Shown: positions 1 through 11,106 of the stretch, piece after piece
Position numbering within the stretch: position 1 is the first letter of the stretch
Layout of the letters: each line of letters begins with the position of its first letter
Assembly: GCA_046758705.1 (NCBI GenBank)
Contig: JBHIAT010000120.1
Coordinates: 1-11,731 of the forward strand
From: Candidatus Bipolaricaulia bacterium
Lineage (GTDB): Bacteria; Bipolaricaulota; Bipolaricaulia; JBHIAT01
Length of the DNA: 11,731 bases
Direction: 5' to 3'
Notes under the pieces: model-generated
Seen by the model: the letters and a program-made list of their open reading frames with translations, nothing else
Database searches by the model: none
What the model was told of the DNA's origin: nothing
Translations under genes and position numbers: made by a program

Positions 1-598
1 TCATCAGCACCCACGGCGTCCACCAGTCACCGAACACCGTCAGTCCGAAGATGCTTCCAAATCCCAGCAGTTCACGCACCACACCCAGCAGCGTCAGCGA
101 CATCAGAAAGCCAAACCCGGTTCCCAGCGCATCCATGGTCGCCAGCCACGGCCTGTGGCCCGAGGCGTACGCTTCGGCTCGTCCGAGTATGAAGCAGTTG
201 GTGATGATCAACGCCACGTAGGGTCCCAACTGTTTGCTGAGGGACGGGATGTACGCCTTGAGGAACAGATCGACGAGGGTGACGTAGAAGGCGATGATGA
301 TCATGTAGGAGGCAATGCGCACCCGATCGGGGACGATGTTTCGGATCAGGGACACCGTCGCCGAGGAGGCGGCCACCGAGAAGGTGGTGGCCAATGCCAT
401 GCCGACGGCATTGGTGGCGGTGTTGGTGACGGCCAAGGTGGGGCACATGGCCAGGACCATGCGAAACGTGGGGTTGTCGTCCCAGATATCTTTGACGAGC
501 TCTTTGAACGATTCGGTCTTGGTCCAGCGTCGCCAGGTGGGCAGGGTTTCGGTGGTGGCGGGTGCCTGGGCCTGAGCCCGCTCGATGTTTTCAGCCAT
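1..598 (-). CDS. rnfE: Rnf electron transport complex subunit E (RnfE/NqrD family), 3'-truncated by window edge
   Basis: Not in the ORF track (no stop inside the window). Manual translation from ATG at 598 gives MAENIERAQ...DIWDDNPTFRMVLAMCPTLAVTN...YVALIITNCFILGRAEAYA...VRELLGFG, with the two conserved Cys motifs (CPxLAVT, NCxILGRAE). GAGGAGGGAG RBS upstream; follows rnfG. Confidence 0.93.
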   Translation of the reverse strand, partial: MAENIERAQAQAPATTETLPTWRRWTKTESFKELVKDIWDDNPTFRMVLAMCPTLAVTNTATNAVGMALATTFSVAASSATVSLIRNIVPDRVRIASYMIIIAFYVTLVDLFLKAYIPSLSKQLGPYVALIITNCFILGRAEAYASGHRPWLATMDALGTGFGFLMSLTLLGVVRELLGFGSIFGLTVFGDWWTPWVLM

Positions 599-622: not shown

Positions 623-1243
623 CTATTGTGCAAGAATCTCCCTCAATCTGTCAAGCTCTGCATTCAACAGCCTTCGGATCGCTGTCGAGGTGAACGTCGC
701 TCCGGTAATCGCCCGGTAGATGTTCGGCGCGGTCGGATCCGCAAATCGGATGAAGTCGACATGTTGCGGATCTTCCCATTTCACCTGCAACCCGTTGAAC
801 TGCGCTCGAAATTCAGCCTCCTCCATCCGCTGTCCCAGGCCGGGGGTCTCGCCGGTCTCGACGACCTCCATCCCGGTCAGCGTCCCCAGGTCCGGTTCGA
901 CCCCGATGGCCATGTCGACGATCCCCTGGAACCCGCCGCCTTGGGGGCGGATCACATATCCGATGATCTCTCCGCTCTCGTCCCGGCCGATCCAGTAGGT
1001 GAAGTCGTCGACCGTCTCCTCGGTGACGTAGCGGTTAAACGTCTCAAGCTGCTGGTCGAAGTCATCCTCGTCAAACGCGATGTCAAGGACGGCCATGATA
1101 TTCTGGCGCAGCCTTCTGGCGCCCGCTGCCTTGATCGTCGGTTCGGTGACGGTGGCGGCGATCGCAAGCACCAGGGCCGCAGCCACTGCGATCCCGGTCA
1201 TCACCCAGATCATCTTCAGCCCGGTCCGATCAATCAGCTTCAT
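623..1243 (-). CDS. rnfG: Rnf subunit G (FMN-binding, RnfG/NqrC family)
   Basis: N-terminal TM anchor, GFQG, ETPGLG and ITGATFTS (flavinylation motif S/TGAT). Start reassigned to ATG 1243 (MKLIDRTG), 5 bp after the rnfD stop and preceded by GGAGG. The 1408 start in the track overlaps rnfD. Confidence 0.92.
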   Translation of the reverse strand: MKLIDRTGLKMIWVMTGIAVAAALVLAIAATVTEPTIKAAGARRLRQNIMAVLDIAFDEDDFDQQLETFNRYVTEETVDDFTYWIGRDESGEIIGYVIRPQGGGFQGIVDMAIGVEPDLGTLTGMEVVETGETPGLGQRMEEAEFRAQFNGLQVKWEDPQHVDFIRFADPTAPNIYRAITGATFTSTAIRRLLNAELDRLREILAQ

Positions 1244-1248
1244 AGGCG

Positions 1249-2361
1249 CTATACCGCCTCCCTCCGATAGCCTTTCGGCAGGGTGAGTAGGTCGATCAGT
1301 GGGGTGAACATGTTCATGAGCAGTACGGCAAACAGGACGCCTTCTGCAAACCCGGTCAGCGCTCGAATCAATACGGTGAGTACACCGCAGCCGATCCCGA
1401 AGATCCACTTGCCCCGGCTGAGCATCGGATGGGTGACTGGATCGGTGAGCATGAAGAAAGCCGCGAGGAACACGCCGCCGGCCAGCATCTGGAACAGTGG
1501 GGGGGCGAACCTCTCCGGAGTCAGGATGTTAAGCCCCCAGGCGAGCAGGCCGACCGTCCCGATGTAGCTCAGCGGTACCCGCCAGTCGATGATCTTGGTG
1601 ACGATCAGCAAAATCCCACCCAACAGCAGCAACAGTGCCGAGGTCTCTCCAATCGACCCGGAGATGTTCCCCAAGAACATCTCTCGCAACGGGAAAGTCT
1701 CCGCTGTGGCCTTGAAGTTAATCAATGGGGTTGCCCGGCTAATCGCATCGGAGGAAATGGCATAGGTTCCAAACCCGGCAACGCCCCCGACCATCGGCTC
1801 CGCCCATCGGGTGGTCATCTCGACCGGGAACGAGATGAGCAGAAACGCCCGACCGACCAGTGCCGGGTTGAAGATGTTGTTCCCGGTTCCGCCAAAGATC
1901 TCCTTGCCCATCGCGACCCCGACGATGATTCCCAACGCCACCATCCATAGGGGGGTCGTCGGCGGCAGAGTGAGCGGGAACAGGATCCCGGTGACCAGAA
2001 GTCCCTCGGTGATGTCCTCTCCACGGACGTAGCTGAAGATCATCTCGGTGAGCCCGCCGACCGTATAAGAGACAGCCACGATCGCCAGCGCCCGCCAGCC
2101 GAAGAAGTAGATGCCTGCCAGCGTCGGTAGCATGAGCCCGATGATCGGCATCGACATGAACCGCTGCATCCCGATGTTGTCCCGCAGGTACGGGAAAGTA
2201 TCGGCGACCAGCTCGGTCCCGCCGAAGAGGAATCCCTCAGCACCCTTAACAAGCGGGGTTAACTTCTTTAATCGCTCGTCCGATTCCACCCGGTTGTTGA
2301 GGTTCTCGAACAACCGTTCAAGGCGCTCCTCGATCGCCCGAGATCTCTCTTGGTCGGCCAT
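1249..2361 (-). CDS. rnfD: Rnf subunit D (RnfD/NqrB family) membrane flavoprotein
   Basis: Polytopic protein with EGLLVTGILFPLTLPP, KEIFGGTGNNIFNPALVGRAFL, DAISRATPL (covalent FMN Thr), GSIGETS, FFMLTDPVT and EGVLFAVLLMNMFTPLID. Confidence 0.95.
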   Translation of the reverse strand: MADQERSRAIEERLERLFENLNNRVESDERLKKLTPLVKGAEGFLFGGTELVADTFPYLRDNIGMQRFMSMPIIGLMLPTLAGIYFFGWRALAIVAVSYTVGGLTEMIFSYVRGEDITEGLLVTGILFPLTLPPTTPLWMVALGIIVGVAMGKEIFGGTGNNIFNPALVGRAFLLISFPVEMTTRWAEPMVGGVAGFGTYAISSDAISRATPLINFKATAETFPLREMFLGNISGSIGETSALLLLLGGILLIVTKIIDWRVPLSYIGTVGLLAWGLNILTPERFAPPLFQMLAGGVFLAAFFMLTDPVTHPMLSRGKWIFGIGCGVLTVLIRALTGFAEGVLFAVLLMNMFTPLIDLLTLPKGYRREAV

Positions 2362-2492: not shown

Positions 2493-3935
2493 TTACTGCC
2501 CCTCCATCATCTGTCGTTCGAGCTTCTCCTTCCCTTCCTTGATCAACGCGGCCAGCGGGATCTTTGACGGACAGACGTAAGAGCAGAGCCCGCAGTCGAT
2601 GCAAGCGAAGATATTCAGATCCTGAGCCCGATCGAACATCTCGTGCTGTGCGTACCGGGCGAGGAAGATCGGCGAGATGTCCACCGGACAGACGTCGAAG
2701 CAATAACCACAGCGGACGCATTCTCGCGGTTCGCCGTGCAGACCGACATCCGCCTGTTTGGCTTTGTCGCCACCGGGGACCGGCGGAAACACTCCCGTAT
2801 AGGAGCTCCGATCGAACCCGGGTTTGACGAACGCCAGCAATTCCCGGGTCGGTCGCTTGAGCACGGTGACCGCCTGGGTATTCTTTAACACCGGTGCCTC
2901 CAGGCTCTCCTGCGCATGGCCTCGTATCGGTCCGCCGAGCAGAATCACCCCCACCTGTTCCTCGATCAACCGATCCGAAAGCAATGCTTTGAGCGGGGTC
3001 CCGACCCGCACCCAGAAGTTTCCTGTATGTTGTAATGCCGAGCCGCTGATCGAGGTCGTCCGTTCGACGAACGGCCGGCCCAAGATCACCGCATCATAGG
3101 CGGCAACCAAGTACTGTACATCGACGACGACGGCGCCGACGTCGGTGGTGTACCCCCGGGTCGGTTCGGTTGGCACGTAGAGATCGAGCAGCGTCCTGAG
3201 CAGTACGTCATCCTCCCCTTGAGGGTACTTGGGACGGAGCGGGTGGATATAAAACCAATCCAGATGTTGGATCCGAGTCTCAAGTTCCTCGATGATCCGG
3301 GGCTTGTTATAGCCGATCCCGACGTGAACCTCCACGTTGCCGAGCGCGGTGCGCATGATCCGGATCCCGGTGAAGAACTTTTCGAACTCCTCGTAGATGA
3401 GCTGGTCTTCGGCTTCGAGATACGGCTCGGTCTCGACCGCATTGATTACCAGATACTTCACATTGCCGGGCTCGGTTTGGGCGGAGTTGAACGGTGTAGG
3501 GAATCCGGTCCGCCCGATGTCGGTCACCCCGCCAAGGTACAACAGCTCACCGAGCTCCTCCTGGCTTTTGCGTTCGAATGCCCCCCCGGCTTCCGCCAAC
3601 GTCTCCCAGCTGTCCTCGCCGTCGGACTCGATCACCACCGCCGTTGCCTCTCCGCCCAGTGGGTGCGGCCGTTCCTCGATCTCGACCACCTCTCCTGAGA
3701 TGCTGGCGTGGATCGGCGTTGAAACGACTTCATCATCTCGACCGATGATCTGGCCTGTCTTCACCCGGTCGCCGACCTCCACCTGGGGTTTGACCGCCTC
3801 GCCGACCCCCGGCTTAAGAAAAACAGTCACCCGGTCGGGTGGGGGGAGGCGCTCCAGCCGTTCAAACCTTGGCGTCCCTTCATACAGGTCGAAGTAGTGT
3901 CCCCCTTTGAACGTCTTGAGTGTCTCTAAAGGCAT
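2493..3935 (-). CDS. rnfC: Rnf subunit C-like protein (RnfC/NqrA family) with two [4Fe-4S] motifs
   Basis: KTFKGG start, VGDRVKTGQ and PIHASISGEV (N-terminal domain), GFPT, INAVETEPY, KYPQG, VRVGTP, GGP, plus CVRCGYCFDVCP and CIDCGLCSYVCPSKIPL. Confidence 0.92.
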   Translation of the reverse strand: MPLETLKTFKGGHYFDLYEGTPRFERLERLPPPDRVTVFLKPGVGEAVKPQVEVGDRVKTGQIIGRDDEVVSTPIHASISGEVVEIEERPHPLGGEATAVVIESDGEDSWETLAEAGGAFERKSQEELGELLYLGGVTDIGRTGFPTPFNSAQTEPGNVKYLVINAVETEPYLEAEDQLIYEEFEKFFTGIRIMRTALGNVEVHVGIGYNKPRIIEELETRIQHLDWFYIHPLRPKYPQGEDDVLLRTLLDLYVPTEPTRGYTTDVGAVVVDVQYLVAAYDAVILGRPFVERTTSISGSALQHTGNFWVRVGTPLKALLSDRLIEEQVGVILLGGPIRGHAQESLEAPVLKNTQAVTVLKRPTRELLAFVKPGFDRSSYTGVFPPVPGGDKAKQADVGLHGEPRECVRCGYCFDVCPVDISPIFLARYAQHEMFDRAQDLNIFACIDCGLCSYVCPSKIPLAALIKEGKEKLERQMMEGQ

Positions 3936-3973: not shown

Positions 3974-4753
3974 TCAAGATCTGCGGGTGCCGACCGACTC
4001 CCGTTTCTGTTCCTTGCGCAACGGCTTGCTGAGGCCATCCGCGCGCACCCGCCAAATATGCAGGAAGATAAACAGCAACATGACGGCCGGGAACAGGATG
4101 ACATGAGTCACATAAAACCTGATCAGCGATGGTTGCCCCAACTCAGTCCCTCCGAACAGGGCAAATTTCGCCTGATCCCCGAAGAACGGCGTCGCTCCGG
4201 CAATGTTTGAGGCGATGCTCGCCGCCCAGTAGGCGAGCTGATCCCAGGGAAGCAGATACCCGGTGAAGCCCATGACATAGGTGAAGACGAACAGAAGTAC
4301 CCCGAGCACCCAGTTAAACTGACGGGGCTTCTGATAGGAGCCGGTGAAGAACACCCGGATCATGTGGATGGTGACGGTCACGACCATCAGGTTGGCCGAC
4401 CAGCGGTGCAGGTTCCGGGTGAATCGCCCCAGGGTGACGACGTTGCTGATCTCCAGGATGCTGTTGTAAGCGCGCTCCACCGAGGGGATATAGTAGAACA
4501 TCAGGAAGATCCCGGTCAACAGGGTGACGAAGTAAAGCCAGAGCGAGATCGCCCCCATGTACCAGGTATAAGAGAACGCCAACGCGCGCTTGCTCTCCCG
4601 AGCACCGACCCACCAAAGATGGACAAAGAAGTTCCGGCTGATCACCGAAATCCGCTCGGCGGTGGTACGCGGCAGATGGTCCCGTCTGAAGATCGACCGC
4701 CAGACCTCCGTCCGTCTCACATACTGGAACAGCAGCAGCAGCTTGTCGATCAT
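3974..4753 (-). CDS. Cytochrome b6-like protein (cytochrome b N-terminal domain, PetB/QcrB-like)
   Basis: TGIFLMFYYIPS..AYNS, RNLHRWSANLMV...HMIRVFFTGSY.KPRQFNW, FTGYLLPWDQLAYWA, RFYVTH...LHIWRVRADGLSKPL. Four heme-ligand His, with 14 residues between the helix-D pair (b6-type spacing). Confidence 0.93.
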   Translation of the reverse strand: MIDKLLLLFQYVRRTEVWRSIFRRDHLPRTTAERISVISRNFFVHLWWVGARESKRALAFSYTWYMGAISLWLYFVTLLTGIFLMFYYIPSVERAYNSILEISNVVTLGRFTRNLHRWSANLMVVTVTIHMIRVFFTGSYQKPRQFNWVLGVLLFVFTYVMGFTGYLLPWDQLAYWAASIASNIAGATPFFGDQAKFALFGGTELGQPSLIRFYVTHVILFPAVMLLFIFLHIWRVRADGLSKPLRKEQKRESVGTRRS

Positions 4754-4778: not shown

Positions 4779-5360
4779 CTAAATATCGACCGGCTCTCCT
4801 TGGTCGTTGATGTGCCTGCCGTCCGGGGTCAGGTAGATGTTGTGATCGATCCCCTTCCAGTAACTGCCTTTGTCGATCGACTTATCGACCAGCAGCCGGC
4901 CGTCGACCGCCAGCGTCATCAGGAAGAACGGCAGCGGCAGCGGCGCCGGCCCATTAATAACGGAGCCGTCCCGGGCGAACACGCTCCCGTGACACGGGCA
5001 TTCGAAACGCAATCTGGTTGAGCTCCACTTCGGCTTACAGCCCAGATGAGTACAAACGTTGGAGATCGCCTGGAATCCCAATTCAGCTCGAAAGACGAAG
5101 ACCCGTTGGTCCCCCATGTCTCCGATGTCCCCGATCTGAAAGTCGGAGGGCTGCCCCGCGGAAAAGATCGGCGAGGATTCAAAGGTGATGCTGGGGTAGA
5201 AGAGTCCGACACCCCAGGCTGTAACGGTCCCCAGAACCAACGTGAGCGATCCCAAACCGAGGCGGGCGAAGAACCGCCGGCGGGTGATCTGCTGGGCTTC
5301 CTTCGGGATACCTGAAAATAGCTCCGGCTGCTCCGGCCTTCTCTCTAGCTCGCTTCCCAC
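4779..5360 (-). CDS. Rieske [2Fe-2S] protein of Rieske/cytochrome b type (PetC/QcrA-like) with Tat anchor
   Basis: TRRRFF twin-arginine motif followed by a hydrophobic helix; CTHLGC and CPCHGS boxes; GPAPLPL loop. GTG start preceded by GAAGGAAGG. Confidence 0.93.
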   Translation of the reverse strand: MGSELERRPEQPELFSGIPKEAQQITRRRFFARLGLGSLTLVLGTVTAWGVGLFYPSITFESSPIFSAGQPSDFQIGDIGDMGDQRVFVFRAELGFQAISNVCTHLGCKPKWSSTRLRFECPCHGSVFARDGSVINGPAPLPLPFFLMTLAVDGRLLVDKSIDKGSYWKGIDHNIYLTPDGRHINDQGEPVDI

Positions 5361-5987: not shown

Positions 5988-7463
5988 ATGAATAAGAATC
6001 TGATCGGTGGCCAATGGGTTGAGGCCGAGGGAGGGGGTACGTTCGAGTCACGCAATCCGGCTGACACCTCCGACCTGATCGGGGTATTTCCCGACTCCGA
6101 CAAACACGATGTCGCGCGGGCGGTGGCGGCGGCCGACGAGGCATTTTTCGATTGGAAGCAGTTTCCAGCCCCCAGGCGGGCGGAGATCCTGTTTGAAGCT
6201 GCCGAGGTGCTGAAGCGGAAGAAAGAGGAGCTCTCGAAGTTGATGACCCGGGAGATGGGCAAGGTGCTCAACGAGGCGCGCGGCGATGTCCAGGAGGGGG
6301 TCGACATGACTTACTACATCGCCGGGGAGGGCCGTCGGCTTCACGGCTACACCACCAAAGCCGAACTTCCCAACAAGGCGACGTACGCGCGCCGAGAGCC
6401 GATCGGCCGCATCGCTGTCATAACCCCGTGGAATTTCCCGCTGGCGATTCCCACCTGGAAGCTGATGCCGGCACTGGTGGCCGGCAACACGGTCGTGTGG
6501 AAACCGGCCACAGACACGCCCCGTCTCGCATACGAACTGGCGGTGTTGCTCCAGGAGGCCGGACTCCCGGACGGGGTGCTCAACGTCGTCTTCGGCCACG
6601 GCAAGCGTGTCGGCCAACCGCTCGTCGAGCACGAAAAGATCGATATGCTCACGTTTACCGGATCGACCGAAGTCGGCAGACACCTGTACCGGGTTGCGGC
6701 GGACAAACTGAACGTGGTGCATCTGGAGATGGGCGGCAAAAATCCGCTCATCGTCATGGACGATGCCGACCTCGACCTGGCGCTGGACGGGATCATTTGG
6801 GGCGCGTTCGGGACGACCGGACAGCGCTGCACCGCCGCCAGCCGAATCATCGTTCACAAAGGGGTCATCGGCGAAGTGATCGAACGGCTCGTCACCGCCA
6901 CTAAACAGCTCAAGGTCGGAAACGGCCTCGACGAGGAGATCGACGTGGGACCGGTCATCAACAAGGCCCAGCTGGATACGATTCACCACTATGTTGAGAT
7001 CGGTCAACAGGGGGGAGCTGAGCTCCTGTGCGGCGGTCGAGTCCTCGACTCGGGGTCCTACGTGAACGGTTACTTCTACGAGCCGACGGTGTTCGCTGGC
7101 GTCACCCCGGAGATGAGGATCTTCAAGGAGGAAATCTTCGGGCCGGTCGCGGTGGTGGTAGAAGCTCAAGACTACGAGGATGCGATCCGGATCGCCAACA
7201 ACACCGACTACGGTCTGTCGTCGGCGATCTACACCCGGGACGTCAACCTGGCGCATCGGGCGATGGACGATCTGGAGGCGGGAATCGTCTATATCAACAG
7301 CAGCACGATCGGTGCCGAGATCCATCTGCCGTTCGGCGGGGTCAAGGGAACCGGGAACGGGCATCGGGAGGCGGGTCAGGCTGCGCTCGAGACCTACACC
7401 GAGTGGAAGGCAGTGTATATCGACTACAGCGGCAGACTCCAGAAGGCCCAGGGGATCGAATAG
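5988..7463 (+). CDS. NAD(P)-dependent aldehyde dehydrogenase family protein (original start probably 5639, interrupted by IS element)
   Basis: ITPWNFP, WKPA, FTGSTEVG, LEMGGKN (catalytic Glu), GQRCTA (catalytic Cys), EEIFGPV, LPFGGVK. Substrate cannot be assigned. Confidence 0.95.
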   Translation: MNKNLIGGQWVEAEGGGTFESRNPADTSDLIGVFPDSDKHDVARAVAAADEAFFDWKQFPAPRRAEILFEAAEVLKRKKEELSKLMTREMGKVLNEARGDVQEGVDMTYYIAGEGRRLHGYTTKAELPNKATYARREPIGRIAVITPWNFPLAIPTWKLMPALVAGNTVVWKPATDTPRLAYELAVLLQEAGLPDGVLNVVFGHGKRVGQPLVEHEKIDMLTFTGSTEVGRHLYRVAADKLNVVHLEMGGKNPLIVMDDADLDLALDGIIWGAFGTTGQRCTAASRIIVHKGVIGEVIERLVTATKQLKVGNGLDEEIDVGPVINKAQLDTIHHYVEIGQQGGAELLCGGRVLDSGSYVNGYFYEPTVFAGVTPEMRIFKEEIFGPVAVVVEAQDYEDAIRIANNTDYGLSSAIYTRDVNLAHRAMDDLEAGIVYINSSTIGAEIHLPFGGVKGTGNGHREAGQAALETYTEWKAVYIDYSGRLQKAQGIE

Positions 7464-7582: not shown

Positions 7583-9595
7583 ATGAGGCACAAAGTGATT
7601 GTTTCCATAAGTCTGGTCGTGGCATTAGTACTAGCGGCATCCGGTCCAGCCGAATCACAACCCAGGCGTTCATATGCGGGCACAACGCCCGCTCCGGAGT
7701 TTCCAATCGGTCTGGATTGGCTCAACACTGATCGACCACTCACCCTTGAGCAACTCAAAGGCAAGGTGGTGCTTCTAGATTTCTGGACTTACGGGTGCAT
7801 CAATTGTATGCACATCATTCCAGAGTTAAAGCAGTTGGAGGAAGAGTATCGCAATGAGCTAGTGGTGATTGGCGTTCACTCCGCTAAGTTCACCAACGAA
7901 GGGGATACCGACAACATCCGCCAGATTATTCTTCGCTACGGATTGGAACATCCCGTCGTCAACGACCGGAACTTTTTGCTATGGCGCATGTGGGGCGCGC
8001 GCGCCTGGCCCACCCTGGTCCTGATTGACCCGGCAGGCAACGTCGTCGGCGGACACATGGGCGAAGGCATTTATCCGATCTTCAAGCCGGTGATCGAATC
8101 ATTGGTGCAGGAGTTTGAGGCCAAGGGCATACTGGATCGTACGCCGTTGGGCCTCAAGCTGGAAAAAGAGGGCTTGCCCGAAACCGTGCTATCATTCCCC
8201 GGCAAGATTCTGGCCGATGCAGACGGCGGTCGCCTGTTCATCGCTGATACCAACCACAACCGGATCGTCATCGCTGATATTGACAGTGGTGACGTATTCA
8301 ACCTGATTGGCAGCGGGGAGCGTGGTTTTGACGATGGTGATTTCCGCACAGCAACCTTTTCTCAGCCGCAAGGGATAGCGCTTTCGGAAGACGGTCGCAC
8401 GCTCTATGTCGCCGATACCGAAAATCACGCTGTGCGTCAGATGGACTTGGTGAACGAAGCGGTGACGACGCTGGTCGGCACCGGTTTCCAGGCACGTATG
8501 TATCCACCAGTATTTGGCTCGGCTCCGAATGTCGCGTTGAACTCCCCATGGGATCTGGAGTTGGATGGCCATCTGCTTTACATTGCTATGGCCGGCTCCC
8601 ATCAAATTTGGGTTGTCAATCTGTCGACAGGAGTGACTCTACCGTTTGTCGGCAACGGCCGCGAGAGCACGCTTAACGGTCCTCGAGACCGGGCGGAGTT
8701 GGCGCAGCCCAGCGGCTTGGCGCTGGATGGCCAGGGCCGACTGTACTTCGCCGACTCCGAGAGCAGTTCGATTCGCTGGGCGGAGACCGATCCGGAGAAC
8801 GGCGAGACCGGCAGCCTGGTCGGCAGCACGAGCAGCTTGTTTCAGTTTGGCGATGTGGATGGTGTGGGTGTCGAGGCTCGCCTACAGCACCCGCTAGGCG
8901 TGGTCTATCACGAGGGTGTGCTCTATGTCGCTGATACCTACAACAGCAAGATCAAGCGCGTTGTCCCTGAGACGCGAGAGATTCAAACATTCATGGGCAG
9001 CGAGCATGGCTGGCGAGACGGTACCGATCCGCTGTTCTACGAGCCCGGTGGTATCGATGTGGCTAACGACAAACTCTATGTGGCCGACACGAACAATCAT
9101 GTGGTGCGGGTCATTGAACTGGACACCCAGGAAACCCGCACGCTGATACTCAAAGGCATCGAGCGCTTCATGGCCTCGCCGGATGACGAAGGCTTCGGCG
9201 GTAAGATCGTGCTCGTTGATCCCATTGAGGTTGGAGTCGGCAGGGGCAAGGTGCTGATTTATATAGCGTTTCCCGACGGCTATAAGGTCAACGATGAGGC
9301 TCCCAATTCGATGGCGTGGGAGGTTGATGGCGACGTGGTCGTGCTGCCTTCCGATGCGAACCGTTCCATCGTGGCCCCCAGCTTCCCGCTGGAACTGGAT
9401 GTCACCTTCAAGCAGGGTGAAGGCCAGCTGACTGGCGACCTGAACATCTTCTACTGCGAGGTGGAAAAGGAAAGCATCTGCCTGATTGAGCGAGTGCGAT
9501 TGGAAGCGCCGATCAAGGTCAAGGACAACGGGGACGACATCTTGAAGCTGAGCCATAGCATCGAGCTCCCGGAGATTGATACGCAAGCACCGTGA
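7583..9595 (+). CDS. Thioredoxin-like + NHL-repeat beta-propeller protein (NHLRC2/SOQ1-like) with signal peptide
   Basis: N-terminal MRHK + hydrophobic stretch; LLDFWTYGCINC, VIGVHSAKF, RAWPTLVLIDP; repeated L(Y/F)(V/I)ADTxNH motifs, LNSPWDL, LAQPSGL, LQHPLGV; C-terminal beta-rich domain with FYC...SIC. Confidence 0.92.
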   Translation: MRHKVIVSISLVVALVLAASGPAESQPRRSYAGTTPAPEFPIGLDWLNTDRPLTLEQLKGKVVLLDFWTYGCINCMHIIPELKQLEEEYRNELVVIGVHSAKFTNEGDTDNIRQIILRYGLEHPVVNDRNFLLWRMWGARAWPTLVLIDPAGNVVGGHMGEGIYPIFKPVIESLVQEFEAKGILDRTPLGLKLEKEGLPETVLSFPGKILADADGGRLFIADTNHNRIVIADIDSGDVFNLIGSGERGFDDGDFRTATFSQPQGIALSEDGRTLYVADTENHAVRQMDLVNEAVTTLVGTGFQARMYPPVFGSAPNVALNSPWDLELDGHLLYIAMAGSHQIWVVNLSTGVTLPFVGNGRESTLNGPRDRAELAQPSGLALDGQGRLYFADSESSSIRWAETDPENGETGSLVGSTSSLFQFGDVDGVGVEARLQHPLGVVYHEGVLYVADTYNSKIKRVVPETREIQTFMGSEHGWRDGTDPLFYEPGGIDVANDKLYVADTNNHVVRVIELDTQETRTLILKGIERFMASPDDEGFGGKIVLVDPIEVGVGRGKVLIYIAFPDGYKVNDEAPNSMAWEVDGDVVVLPSDANRSIVAPSFPLELDVTFKQGEGQLTGDLNIFYCEVEKESICLIERVRLEAPIKVKDNGDDILKLSHSIELPEIDTQAP

Positions 9596-9605
9596 CTCAT
9601 TCCAC

Positions 9606-10661
9606 CTAATGCTCTAGCTCTATGCCCAACTCGCTGCCCAGTTCCTCTAGCTCAGCATATAGCTCTTGGCTCAGCGGAATCCCGTGTTTCAGGCGCTCGC
9701 GCTCCGTCCTTGCCTCAGGCTCCCCTGGAAGAAAGACTTCATCAAACTCCTCTGCCGGTGGGATCGACTTGATCTCACGGATCATCTGATCGACTCGCTG
9801 CTTAAATTCGTCTGCGGGCAGATAGCTGGCGATATCGATCGCGCCGACAAAGTGCCCGATCGCCTGAGGTTCGGAGAAGTTGTCGTACATGCGGTTGATG
9901 TGGACACCGAAGGCTGATCCGGTCAGCAGGGCGGAGAGAATGTCAATGATCACCGCCAGGCCGTAGCCCTTCGACCCTCCCAGGGGACGAACCGCTCGAG
10001 CTTTCTTGGGATCGGTGATGGGATTCCCTTCCGTGTCCACCGCCCAATCTTCGGGGATCTCGCGCCCCTCCTGTGCCGCTACCATGACCTTGCCCATGGC
10101 GACCCCGCTGGTGGCCATATCCAGAACAATAGGTAACTCATCTTTGGCGGGAACGGCTATCGCGAGGGGATTTGTCCCGAGGACAGGTTTTTTACCGCCG
10201 AAGGGGATCATATCGGCCTCGGCGTGAGTGAGGGCGAGGCCGATCATATCGTCCTCCAGGGCCCTCATGGCGAAGTAGGCCGCGGTTCCGAAGTGGTTGC
10301 TGTTCTTGATCGCAACAAATCCCACGCCTGCCTCCTTGGCGATTGGGATCGCTTCGTCCATCGCTCGTAGCGCGACCAGTTGTCCTGGCCCATTTCCCCC
10401 ATCCAAGATCGCCGTGGCAGGTGCGGTTCGCGTCAGCCTCATCTCAGGCTGGGTCACGATCAACCCCATCCGCATTCGCTTGACATAGATGCCCAGGCGC
10501 ATCACTCCATGGCTGTCCACACCGCGAAGGTTGGCCTTAACCAGGGAATCCGACACAATTTCGGCATTCTCCGGCGAAAGTTCGGCCTTGATCAGCACCT
10601 CACGACAGAAATCTTTGAGTTTTTCCGCTCTTACTTTAAGTACATCGTTATTTTCATTCAT
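9606..10661 (-). CDS. Ldh_2 family (malate/L-lactate/ureidoglycolate) dehydrogenase, AllD-like
   Basis: ANLRGVDSHG, NSNHFG, PFGG...GTNPLA, LDMATS, KGYGL, LPGEPE. Start placed at ATG 10661 (or 10664), overlapping the upstream stop and following AGGAAG. Confidence 0.9.
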   Translation of the reverse strand: MNENNDVLKVRAEKLKDFCREVLIKAELSPENAEIVSDSLVKANLRGVDSHGVMRLGIYVKRMRMGLIVTQPEMRLTRTAPATAILDGGNGPGQLVALRAMDEAIPIAKEAGVGFVAIKNSNHFGTAAYFAMRALEDDMIGLALTHAEADMIPFGGKKPVLGTNPLAIAVPAKDELPIVLDMATSGVAMGKVMVAAQEGREIPEDWAVDTEGNPITDPKKARAVRPLGGSKGYGLAVIIDILSALLTGSAFGVHINRMYDNFSEPQAIGHFVGAIDIASYLPADEFKQRVDQMIREIKSIPPAEEFDEVFLPGEPEARTERERLKHGIPLSQELYAELEELGSELGIELEH

Positions 10662-11106
10662 CATCTTCCTGATCTTCGGGCTCGGAGTCAAGCACCGCGA
10701 TCGCCTCGACTTCGATGAGCATCTTGGGGTCCACTAGGCCTTGGACCTCGACCATCGTGAGCGCCGGTCGGATCTCCCCGAAGAACTCTGCGTGGGCGCG
10801 CCCGTACTCTCGCCAGCGTGAGATGTCTGTGACGTAGAAACGCGTGCAGACGACGTGGCGTCGGGCAGCTCTCGCCTGGTGGAGAGCCCATTTGACCTTC
10901 TCCAACGCATAGCGGGTCTGCGCATAGGCATCCCCTTCACCGACTACACGCCCCTCGGCATCAGAGGCAGTCGTCCCGGCGACGTACACCGTATCTCGAA
11001 CACGTACCGCCCGTGAGTAGCCCACAATCGGCTCCCAGGGCGCCGCCGATGAGATGCGTAGCCGCTCCACTGCCCCGGTCTCCTGCCCTGTATTCGGCGG
11101 TTTCAT
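10654..11106 (-). CDS. Rid (YjgF/YER057c/UK114) family protein
   Basis: WEPIVGYSRAVRV, VAGTTA, AHAEFFGEIRPALTMVEV, LIEVEA. Start at ATG 11106 after AGGAAGGAG (alternative start 11124). Confidence 0.9.
   Translation of the reverse strand: MKPPNTGQETGAVERLRISSAAPWEPIVGYSRAVRVRDTVYVAGTTASDAEGRVVGEGDAYAQTRYALEKVKWALHQARAARRHVVCTRFYVTDISRWREYGRAHAEFFGEIRPALTMVEVQGLVDPKMLIEVEAIAVLDSEPEDQEDDE

Follow-up and report, generated by a model that had tools for sequence, protein, structure and literature searches.

In the canonical Rnf complex, electrons pass from the riboflavin of RnfD to two [4Fe-4S] clusters of RnfC and then through flavin mononucleotide (FMN) to NAD+ (PMC9588780, PMC11889175; here and below, statements taken from the literature refer to excerpts of the papers cited). 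In published accounts, the enzyme Na+-NQR (Na+-translocating NADH:quinone oxidoreductase) descends from an Rnf that lost RnfB and gained NqrF and whose RnfC decayed to a cofactor-less NqrA, and the excerpts name no intermediates. Reyes-Prieto et al. (2014) placed this decay after the loss of RnfB and did not achieve a joint alignment of NqrA and RnfC for a tree. Here we analyzed a stretch of 11,731 nucleotides from Candidatus Bipolaricaulia bacterium (the window), which is the whole contig JBHIAT010000120.1 (C120) and encodes a protein that we call C'. C' is the cytoplasmic subunit that takes the place of RnfC/NqrA in an Rnf/Nqr-type complex, which is encoded together with a Rieske/cytochrome b6-type module. 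Judged from sequence comparisons, we consider it somewhat probable that C' is a flavin-less Fe-S relay toward a quinone-linked module, not an NAD+ reductase, and that it belongs to a conserved RnfC-derived lineage in which NqrA arose.

C' resembles the RnfC subunits of A. woodii (9ERI), A. vinelandii (8AHX), and C. tetanomorphum (7ZC6) in domain order, fold, both CxxCxxCxxxCP motifs, and its operon place before D-G-E-A, but these proteins have the canonical FMN/NAD loop, the Cys of ECEPY, the NVxT motif, no 38-residue insertion before the ferredoxin domain, an unextended RnfD, and a polyferredoxin RnfB as partner. With NqrA of V. cholerae (7XK3/8A1U), C' shares the loop Arg330-Asn379, the Gln of the YQD motif, an NqrB-type N-terminus of the D subunit, and an NqrF-type 2Fe-2S input, whereas NqrA has neither the Cys motifs nor a cofactor; C' keeps eight Cys, scores far below the NqrA cut-offs, and has an input subunit without flavin adenine dinucleotide (FAD) and NAD domains.

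Three described systems invite comparison. The cluster OP4C155-0162 of Ca. Acetothermum autotrophicum consists of rnfCDGEAB with Rieske and cytochrome b genes and was read as an Rnf of the ferredoxin:NAD+ type that serves acetogenic energy conservation (Takami et al., 2012; PMC3267732). It is like the window in its rnfCDGEAB-like cluster and Rieske/cytochrome b genes and comes from the phylum-level group of the closest named relatives; the excerpts of that account do not discuss altered C, D, and B subunits (PMC3267732). For the Desulfobacula toluolica Tol2-type Rnf, an RnfC that has no NAD-binding domains and needs another acceptor is described (PMC5109826, citing Wöhlbrand 2013); we liken it to C' by description only, and it may fall in either group X2 or group Y (defined below). 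The Rieske/cytochrome b complexes of anammox bacteria (PMC12954380), likewise compared by description only, also join Rieske/cytochrome b to extra cytoplasmic redox subunits, but these are NAD(P)-type oxidoreductase subunits and there is no Rnf/Nqr core. The full-text literature search, whose scope left out subscription journals and supplements, brought up no account of NqrA-like subunits that bear Fe-S clusters or of where this family stands, and the words 'hybrid', 'intermediate', and 'Rieske' are absent from the 2025 RNF/NQR review (PMC12174285).

An RnfC-type protein with an NqrA-type insertion

Profile searches recovered in C' the RnfC_N barrel-sandwich (2.2e-24), the NuoF-type Complex1_51K (4.9e-23), and the Fer4/4Fe-4S dicluster families of Pfam. 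With 343 bits, C' passed the rnfC model TIGR01945 (cut-off 245.95). Its score for the RsxC equivalog (316.2) was under the cut-off of 345, and that for the NqrA model TIGR01936 was 112.2, the cut-off of 321.05 not being reached. Another NqrA model, NF003761, matched C' end to end (residues 26-476 onto 22-448/449) with 136.9 bits, far below its cut-off of 450. An AlphaFold2 model of C' built on 127 aligned sequences had a predicted local distance difference test score (pLDDT) of 95.6, with 80-92 within the insertion described below. In a Foldseek search, this model matched RnfC first (TM score 0.80-0.83, 26-28% identity) and NqrA next (TM score 0.75-0.76).

An earlier note on this DNA had described C' as an RnfC with a degenerate FMN/NAD site, an NqrA-like insertion, and two intact [4Fe-4S] motifs. 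All the motifs that it quoted are present, with coordinates verified by translation (Table 1), and the gene lies on the minus strand. The signature trio of canonical RnfC, namely the glycine loop, ECEPY, and NVxT, is absent from C'. At the matching sites, all three solved RnfC chains (9eri_C, 8ahx_C, and 7zc6_C) have G(L/M)GGA.FP, ECEPY, and N(V/A)xT, and in C' the last two read ETEPY and DVQY. The Gln of DVQY is common to the rest of the insertion-bearing family and to NqrA (YQD). Both C-terminal [4Fe-4S] binding motifs of RnfC are retained, and all eight Cys are invariant in the 127-sequence alignment; the four NqrA sequences examined lack them. The site changes noted earlier are real, but C' is not a decayed singleton; it is a member of a large, well-conserved family. 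A pseudogene or decaying copy was also considered and rejected on the basis of the intact frame, the pLDDT of 95.6, and hundreds of conserved relatives.

The linker from the SLBB domain to the first Cys, which is short (~10 aa) in canonical RnfC, spans 44 aa in C' over the same columns. The solved RnfC chains align to C' in two pieces, ~8-363 and 402-479, and skip residues 364-401. V. cholerae NqrA (7xk3_A; whole-sequence E 1.1e-13) runs without a gap through residues 371-420, which include most of the insertion (E 5e-07 for this stretch). The gap-free alignment and the end-to-end match of NF003761 thus indicate that the likeness of the insertion, already proposed from the sequence, is real homology and not chance. 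The columns of residues 362 and 405 lie 42-47 aa apart in family X, 44-47 aa apart in NqrA, and ~10 aa apart in RnfC, and the pattern E..RE.L.[FW].RPG....S...[DT]T..[HN]G..R within the 42-47-aa stretch is common to families X and X2 (defined below) and NqrA.

In V. cholerae, the loop Arg330-Asn379 is the membrane anchor of NqrA and intertwines with the N-terminus of NqrB, and NqrA residues Leu334, Phe335, Trp337, Ala338, Pro340, Leu352, and Leu355 would dip into the membrane (Kishikawa et al., PMC9325719). The C' segment ELLAFVKPG falls on this anchor, with hydrophobic residues at the positions of L334, F335, W337, and A338 and a Pro at that of P340. Because the NqrA loop wraps the NqrB N-terminus, an NqrB-type N-terminus of the D subunit would be expected if the insertion of C' has the same role, and the D subunit of the window has one. 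This extension of ~35-40 residues, ending in PH[VI]RD..D.KR[FYM]M, was found in the window D and in 5/5 X, 4/4 X2, and 4/4 NqrB sequences but in 0/6 canonical RnfD, and BLASTP start points gave the same split.

Position of the family between RnfC and NqrA

A word-indexed search with C', in which 7999 candidates were scored, returned 2253 proteins at E ≤ 1e-10. The best match other than C' itself had 56% identity, and the names of the homologues in their sources varied (RnfC, '4Fe-4S dicluster domain-containing protein', and 'NqrA'). An exhaustive search of representative sequences returned 1124 of them at E ≤ 1e-30. Proteins matching C' in one stretch were insertion carriers, and those matching in two stretches were canonical RnfC. 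We aligned 238 sequences, consisting of proteins from both searches and C subunits read off fetched loci and including seven duplicate rows (three NqrA and four X2), and sorted them by simple rules. The alignment contained 87 canonical RnfC; 80 X, with a G[FILV]P[TS] remnant, the insertion, and the Cys; 40 X2, with an NqrA-like loop, the insertion, and the Cys; 21 Y, with no insertion and a non-canonical loop; and 7 NqrA rows (4 distinct). The canonical consensus was G.GGA.FPT..K, ECEPY, and Nv.T with a linker of ~10 aa; its glycine loop was invariant in a class that is itself defined by the presence of G.GG, and the consensus also comes from the three solved chains. The CxxCxxCxxxCP motifs are intact in both X and X2. 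The traits of the insertion-bearing Fe-S lineage (X and X2) are the insertion, eight Cys, a non-canonical loop, an extended D, and a 2Fe-2S input subunit, and all of them occur here; no published name for this lineage was found in the literature search.

Within the clade of X that contains C' (the window clade), the first half of the loop, before GFPT, is variable (DIGRT, SAGRA, CGGQA, ALGKW, DLGLE, or AGGKG), and the loop is deleted in the clade member L120 and in P0042. Such variation and deletion would be expected if the loop no longer holds the flavin phosphate. With the loop invariant in canonical RnfC and variable or deleted here, the proposal of the earlier note that C' probably no longer turns over NAD(H) is supported as far as sequence can reach.

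We computed three quick IQ-TREE trees under LG+C20 by posterior mean site frequency (PMSF), with the Shimodaira–Hasegawa-like approximate likelihood ratio test (SH-aLRT) as the only support measure. In an unrooted tree of 66 rows, the order was NqrA, X2, a grade of X, the window clade, and RnfC, with RnfC monophyletic at 100 and RnfC plus the window clade at 98. With X2 and Y added (76 rows), the insertion-less rows (RnfC and Y) lay on one side of a branch at 100 with the window clade as their sister (99), X2 and NqrA were grouped at 95, and NqrA was sister to the X2 of Desulfobacterales at 99. A rooted tree of 75 rows was built on residues 112-362 only, excluding the insertion and the ferredoxin domain, with six NuoF-like proteins as the outgroup and seven long-branch rows dropped (X2_L043, X2_L032, Y_L080, Y_L088, Y_L060, Y_L089, and Y_L065). 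The root fell among canonical RnfC, and the 43 rows with the insertion came together in a single clade (99), in which the window clade (98) and P0121 were basal and NqrA was nested within X2 at 98. The sampling of NqrA was thin, a search for the NqrA family in 10 other genomes having yielded true NqrA in only 4 (three Gammaproteobacteria and one Planctomycetaceae, with no Bacteroidota).

In all three trees the insertion-bearing proteins stand between RnfC and NqrA, as the earlier reading of C' as an RnfC-to-NqrA intermediate had it, and these sequence comparisons suggest that the C' gene and its family are living intermediates of this kind. The lineage would have branched from canonical RnfC, gained the membrane loop of NqrA, and lost the glycine FMN/NAD(H) loop while keeping both [4Fe-4S] clusters, and the cofactor-less NqrA would have arisen later, inside the insertion-bearing lineage. 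The X2 subunits of Desulfobacterales, Planctomycetota, and others are like C' in the insertion, the eight Cys, the extended D, and the 2Fe-2S input subunit but differ in that their loops are already NqrA-like and their sixth subunits are mostly full NqrF-type proteins.

Several observations were made on individual members of these groups. 'NqrA-like' X2 subunits that combine NqrA-type loops and the insertion with both CxxCxxCxxxCP motifs occur in L041, L042, L045, L061, L066, L071-L073, L083, L092, and other Desulfobacterales, and X2 subunits in Planctomycetota occur in L034, L038, L052, and L058; those of these loci in which the sixth gene was checked (all except L038, L071, and L092) are operons with NqrF-type genes. 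Group Y (L030, L037, L064, L074, L086, L089, L097-L099, and others) has no insertion, and its FMN loop is non-canonical or missing; it includes Desulfacinum infernum DSM 9756 (L098). The branching of group Y with canonical RnfC suggests further independent losses of the flavin site. In L003/P0003 and P0010, an extra Glu/Lys/Leu-rich insertion of ~50 residues lies in the SLBB region of C' (alignment columns 411-460).

Operon, sixth subunit, and host genome

On the minus strand of the window, the genes are ordered Rieske, cytochrome b6-type half, C', D, G, and E (Table 1), with a gap of 38 nt between the cytochrome b6-type gene and C' downstream of it. Another contig of the same genome (C154, locus L018) ends with the C-terminus of an RnfA that is 63% identical to RnfA of the Acetothermia metagenome-assembled genome locus L021, and B' and a ferredoxin::subunit IV-like fusion are encoded there. 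The nine-gene order Rieske–cytochrome b6–C'DGEA–B'–ferredoxin::subunit IV-like is also found in L021.

We examined the synteny of 21 metagenome loci of the window clade with 46-57% identity. Cytochrome b is directly upstream of C' in 20 of them, the other being L120, whose 1.2 kb of upstream sequence gave no match; a Rieske gene is upstream in 18, and two more loci are cut inside cytochrome b. Nine loci have the nine-gene form (in one of them the contig stops within the last gene), another is truncated within A, and six are too short for an assignment. The remaining five (L112, L122, L127, L130, and L131) have a six-gene form that lacks G, E, and A and runs Rieske–cytochrome b–C'–D–B'–ferredoxin::subunit IV-like. 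As this form is without the A/E/G transmembrane path, C'–D–B' can work with the Rieske/cytochrome b proteins without the pump core.

The sixth subunit was examined in 22 insertion-bearing loci and the own genome. An NqrF-type 2Fe-2S domain was present in 22 of these 23 cases, the exception being L043, which has FAD and NAD domains only, and a polyferredoxin RnfB was found in none (0/23). The gene after A encodes a full NqrF-type protein in twelve loci (L022, L023, L041, L042, L045, L052, L058, L061, L066, L072, L073, and L083), a short helix plus 2Fe-2S protein with NuoE-/NuoF-like genes nearby in L024, L025, and L028, and a 2Fe-2S::NuoE fusion followed by NuoF in L027, L039, and L046; the sixth gene of L034 is cut after the 2Fe-2S domain. 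Of the X2 sixth subunits examined, 11/13 were full NqrF-type and 2/13 were Fer2–NuoE fusions with a NuoF-like gene after them.

B' has an NqrF-type membrane helix and 2Fe-2S domain, with a match to NqrF residues 45-140 (E 2.8e-7), and then the flexible RnfB-type [4Fe-4S] domain, with a match to RnfB residues 32-89 (E 1.7e-7; PF04060); it has neither FAD/NAD domains nor the polyferredoxin part. Pfam showed this chimera in the own genome and L021, and tblastn showed it in 15 related loci; from its domain make-up B' itself looks like an RnfB–NqrF intermediate. The last gene of the operon encodes a plant-type 2Fe-2S ferredoxin, an acidic linker of ~110 residues, and a membrane domain of three helices in which PEK.PWYF is invariant. 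This membrane domain is probably cytochrome b6f subunit IV-like, which would put the ferredoxin at the cytoplasmic face of cytochrome b. A single-sequence PDB search with the fusion returned ferredoxins and NqrF only. A complex prediction for C' (with two 4Fe-4S and one 2Fe-2S) and fusion residues 1-100, run without controls, gave a score of 0.00 and is uninformative either way.

The own genome (93.9% complete) contains no second RnfC/NqrA; the one match, 24% identical and unannotated, lies in a 404-aa frame. Neither RnfB nor NqrF was found above the cut-off. It has a haem-copper oxidase and a MenA-type gene barely over the cut-off (109.1 vs 102.15); futalosine genes of the MqnA/MqnD type were not found in it. 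Five cytochrome b genes are present, in the window and on C222, C16, C4, and C53, with the copy on C16 ~1.3 kb from the MenA-type gene. Because there are five of them, the Rieske/cytochrome b pair of the operon is taken as a dedicated paralogue. Further fragments of Rnf-Nqr family membrane proteins occur at the ends of two contigs (C199:4800-4964 and C147:2-157) with no rnf genes adjoining; they may represent an orphan RnfA/E-like gene, and such paralogy is perhaps the cause of the assembly break in the operon.

The motifs SRATPL in D and TGATFTS in G are presumably covalent-FMN threonine motifs. In the excerpts of the A. woodii paper, the residues given are Thr156 of RnfD and Thr185 of RnfG. 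The longest open reading frame of G (623-1408) begins with GTG and overlaps the end of D by 160 nt, and a start at the ATG at 1243 gives a normal signal-anchor N-terminus, MKLIDRTGLKMIWVMTG. Downstream of the operon, the plus strand at 7583-9595 encodes a 670-aa secreted protein with a thioredoxin-like/AhpC-TSA domain fused to NHL repeats; its neighbours encode an aldehyde dehydrogenase (5988-7463) and, on the minus strand, an Ldh_2 family dehydrogenase (9606-10691).

Table 1. Features of the Rnf/Nqr-type operon in the window and of its continuation on contig C154 of the same genome (nt, positions in the window unless another contig is given; aa, residues of the protein concerned)
Feature	Position	Strand	Remarks
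Rieske 2Fe-2S protein	4779..5360	minus	twin-arginine leader RRRFF; boxes CTHLGC / CPCHGS
Cytochrome b6-type protein, N-terminal half only	3974..4753	minus	PF00033 5.8e-42; cytochrome b6 model 193 bits, ExtP 249.6 bits
C' subunit (RnfC/NqrA position)	2493..3935	minus	ATG at 3935; 480 aa, intact open reading frame
Remnant of FMN/NAD glycine-rich loop, DIGRTGFPTPFN	aa 139-150, nt 3486-3521	minus	canonical G.GGA.FPT..K; checked by translation
ETEPY in place of canonical ECEPY	aa 168-172, nt 3420-3434	minus	checked by translation
DVQY in place of canonical NVxT	aa 272-275, nt 3111-3122	minus	checked by translation
NqrA-type insertion, RELLAFVKPGFDRSSYTGVFPPVPGGDKAKQADVGLHG	aa 364-401 (38 residues), nt 2733-2846	minus	equivalent of NqrA loop Arg330-Asn379
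First CxxCxxCxxxCP motif, CVRCGYCFDVCP	aa 406-417, nt 2685-2720	minus	C406/409/412/416
Second CxxCxxCxxxCP motif, CIDCGLCSYVCP	aa 445-456, nt 2568-2603	minus	C445/448/451/455
D subunit (RnfD/NqrB family)	1249..2361	minus	PF03116 6.5e-104; rnfD 290 bits vs nqrB 280-283 bits
NqrB-type N-terminal extension of D	aa 1-55, nt 2197-2361	minus	alignment with X, X2, NqrB, and RnfD
G subunit (RnfG/NqrC family, FMN_bind)	623..1243	minus	TGATFTS; likely start ATG at 1243, 5 nt past the D stop
E subunit (RnfE/NqrD family)	2..598	minus	PF02508 3.1e-57; 3' end cut by contig start
B' (sixth subunit, 217 aa)	L018/C154 7360-8013	minus	membrane helix + NqrF-type 2Fe-2S + RnfB-type [4Fe-4S]
Ferredoxin::subunit IV-like fusion, 345 aa	L018/C154 6285-7322	minus	last operon gene

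Possible roles of C' and meaning for the family

The motifs, homology, fold, phylogenetic position, co-varying D extension, and conserved synteny described above are the observations from which we infer the loss of FMN and NAD(H) turnover as well as the partner, the direction of electron flow, and the ion coupling considered here. Because the clusters and the contact with D are kept, the latter even reinforced, while the flavin/nicotinamide loop is gone, we read C' as a flavin-less relay to a partner other than NAD(H). Its clusters most likely carry electrons between the riboflavin of D and this non-nicotinamide partner. The partner could be the tethered Fe-S domains of B' and of the ferredoxin::subunit IV-like fusion, which would provide a link to the cytoplasmic face of cytochrome b, or it could be quinone itself. 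With either partner, electrons would be exchanged between the complex and the (mena)quinone pool, and NAD+ would not be reduced. The suggestion that the complex is quinone-directed, also made earlier, is in keeping with the Rieske/cytochrome b6/probable subunit IV-like operon, the NqrB-type stretch of D, the MenA-type gene, and the haem-copper oxidase, as far as genes can tell.

Several results weigh against this relay. C' scores above the cut-off of the rnfC model, and its predicted structure superposes better on RnfC than on NqrA. GFPT, both acidic residues of ETEPY, and KYPQG[ED]D are retained in the window clade, some relatives of C' keep GG.AGFPT, so that a weakened flavin site is possible, and the window clade is the insertion-bearing clade nearest to canonical RnfC. 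The trees came from quick searches with SH-aLRT alone, the outgroup branch is long, and the loss of loop residues may attract sequences to one another. As for the operon, its continuation on C154 lies across an assembly gap from C120. The membrane domain of the fusion matched PF00032 at 20.1 bits, below the cut-off of 20.7, and its C-terminal profile had two matches in the PDB, both to C-terminal halves of cytochrome b at the PEWY region, with E values of only 0.23-0.25.

Several of these points would fit a C' that is a working RnfC, whose divergent loop still binds FMN and reduces NAD+ or oxidizes NADH, the operon then being an Rnf or an NAD(H) module on a Rieske/cytochrome b complex. This was the reading of Takami et al. 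(2012), it agrees with the rnfC score, the RnfC-like fold, the retained GFPT, ETEPY, and KYPQG, the GG.AGFPT of some relatives, and the nearness of the clade to canonical RnfC, and generation of NAD(P)H has been proposed for the Rieske/cytochrome b complexes of anammox bacteria (PMC12954380). We nevertheless consider it rather unlikely. The fourth position of the loop, a Gly in the canonical motif, is never Gly among the family-X loops inspected, and the final Lys is usually lost; in the window clade the loop varies, and L120 and P0042 have none. Throughout the family, other residues stand in place of the Cys of ECEPY and of the NVxT motif. KYPQG has HPAG as its counterpart in cofactor-less NqrA, so that KYPQG alone is no argument for flavin. 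In addition, most sister lineages supply a separate NAD(H) module of NqrF or NuoEF type at the other end of the complex.

Another possibility is that the former FMN pocket has become a site for the quinone head group fed by the two [4Fe-4S] clusters, so that C' would itself be a quinone reductase. Photoreactive ubiquinone labels V. cholerae NqrA at Leu32-Met39 and Phe131-Lys138 (PMC9325719), and in the alignment with 7xk3_A the latter segment falls on the loop remnant of C', DIGRTGFPTPFN being aligned onto NqrA residues ~128-138. The labelled cavity fits the head-ring and lies ~30 Å from riboflavin, too far for electron transfer in NqrA (PMC9325719). The retained Fe-S chain of C' would span such a distance, and the adjacent insertion dips into the membrane in NqrA (PMC9325719). 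However, the solved Nqr structures list ubiquinone under NqrB (PMC12174285), and the cavity of NqrA is ~20 Å above the membrane (PMC9325719). We regard this role of C' as improbable.

Still less probable, in our view, is that C' serves soluble low-potential carriers such as ferredoxin or flavodoxin as a docking port, with the polarity of the complex swapped relative to Rnf. Two [4Fe-4S] clusters that are conserved, close to the surface, and not backed by a flavin, and a B' that lacks the ferredoxin-binding polyferredoxin part of RnfB, would suit such a port, but the operon has no dedicated ferredoxin gene beyond the two tethered 2Fe-2S domains, and because the forward, ion-exporting flow enters on the B/F side and leaves on the C/A side (PMC12174285), a low-potential donor at C' would reverse the pump. 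That the Fe-S motifs are vestigial and C' is merely a structural lid, as is thought of NqrA, which is cofactor-less and has no direct function assigned (PMC12174285), is very hard to reconcile with eight Cys invariant over 127 diverse sequences and CxxCxxCxxxCP motifs intact in X and X2, and we give it almost no credence.

If C' is a flavin-less relay, a nicotinamide-free circuit of the nine-gene form can be imagined, in which a low-potential electron, freed by quinol oxidation at the Rieske/cytochrome b Qo site, would exit at the cytoplasmic face of cytochrome b and pass through the 2Fe-2S domain of the subunit IV-like fusion to B', on through the pump core to the riboflavin of D and the Fe-S chain of C', and finally to quinone; the former FMN pocket of C' would then be the ancestral quinone (or Fe-S docking) site of the NQR lineage. 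This circuit as a whole is speculative, and we think it unlikely. If it were true, the ubiquinone-labelled cavity of V. cholerae NqrA would be a relic of the ancestral site of C', and the six-gene form would be the same circuit minus the pump.

For the family, the placement of C' suggests an order of events in which the membrane loop, the NqrB-type N-terminus, and the 2Fe-2S input domain were gained and the flavin loop was lost at the outset, and the Fe-S clusters were lost last, within a lineage already having NqrF. NqrA, to which no direct function is assigned, would thereby gain a testable history and a possible account of its ubiquinone-labelled cavity. Many gene sets that are likely annotated as Nqr may carry two extra Fe-S clusters. 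Relatives of C' are carried by the cultured organisms Acetohalobium arabaticum (P0116, family X) and Desulfoluna butyratoxydans MSL71 (L092, X2), which makes biochemistry feasible. For Acetothermia/Bipolaricaulota, metabolic reconstructions in which this cluster figures as a ferredoxin:NAD+ Rnf that conserves energy in acetogenesis are probably wrong.

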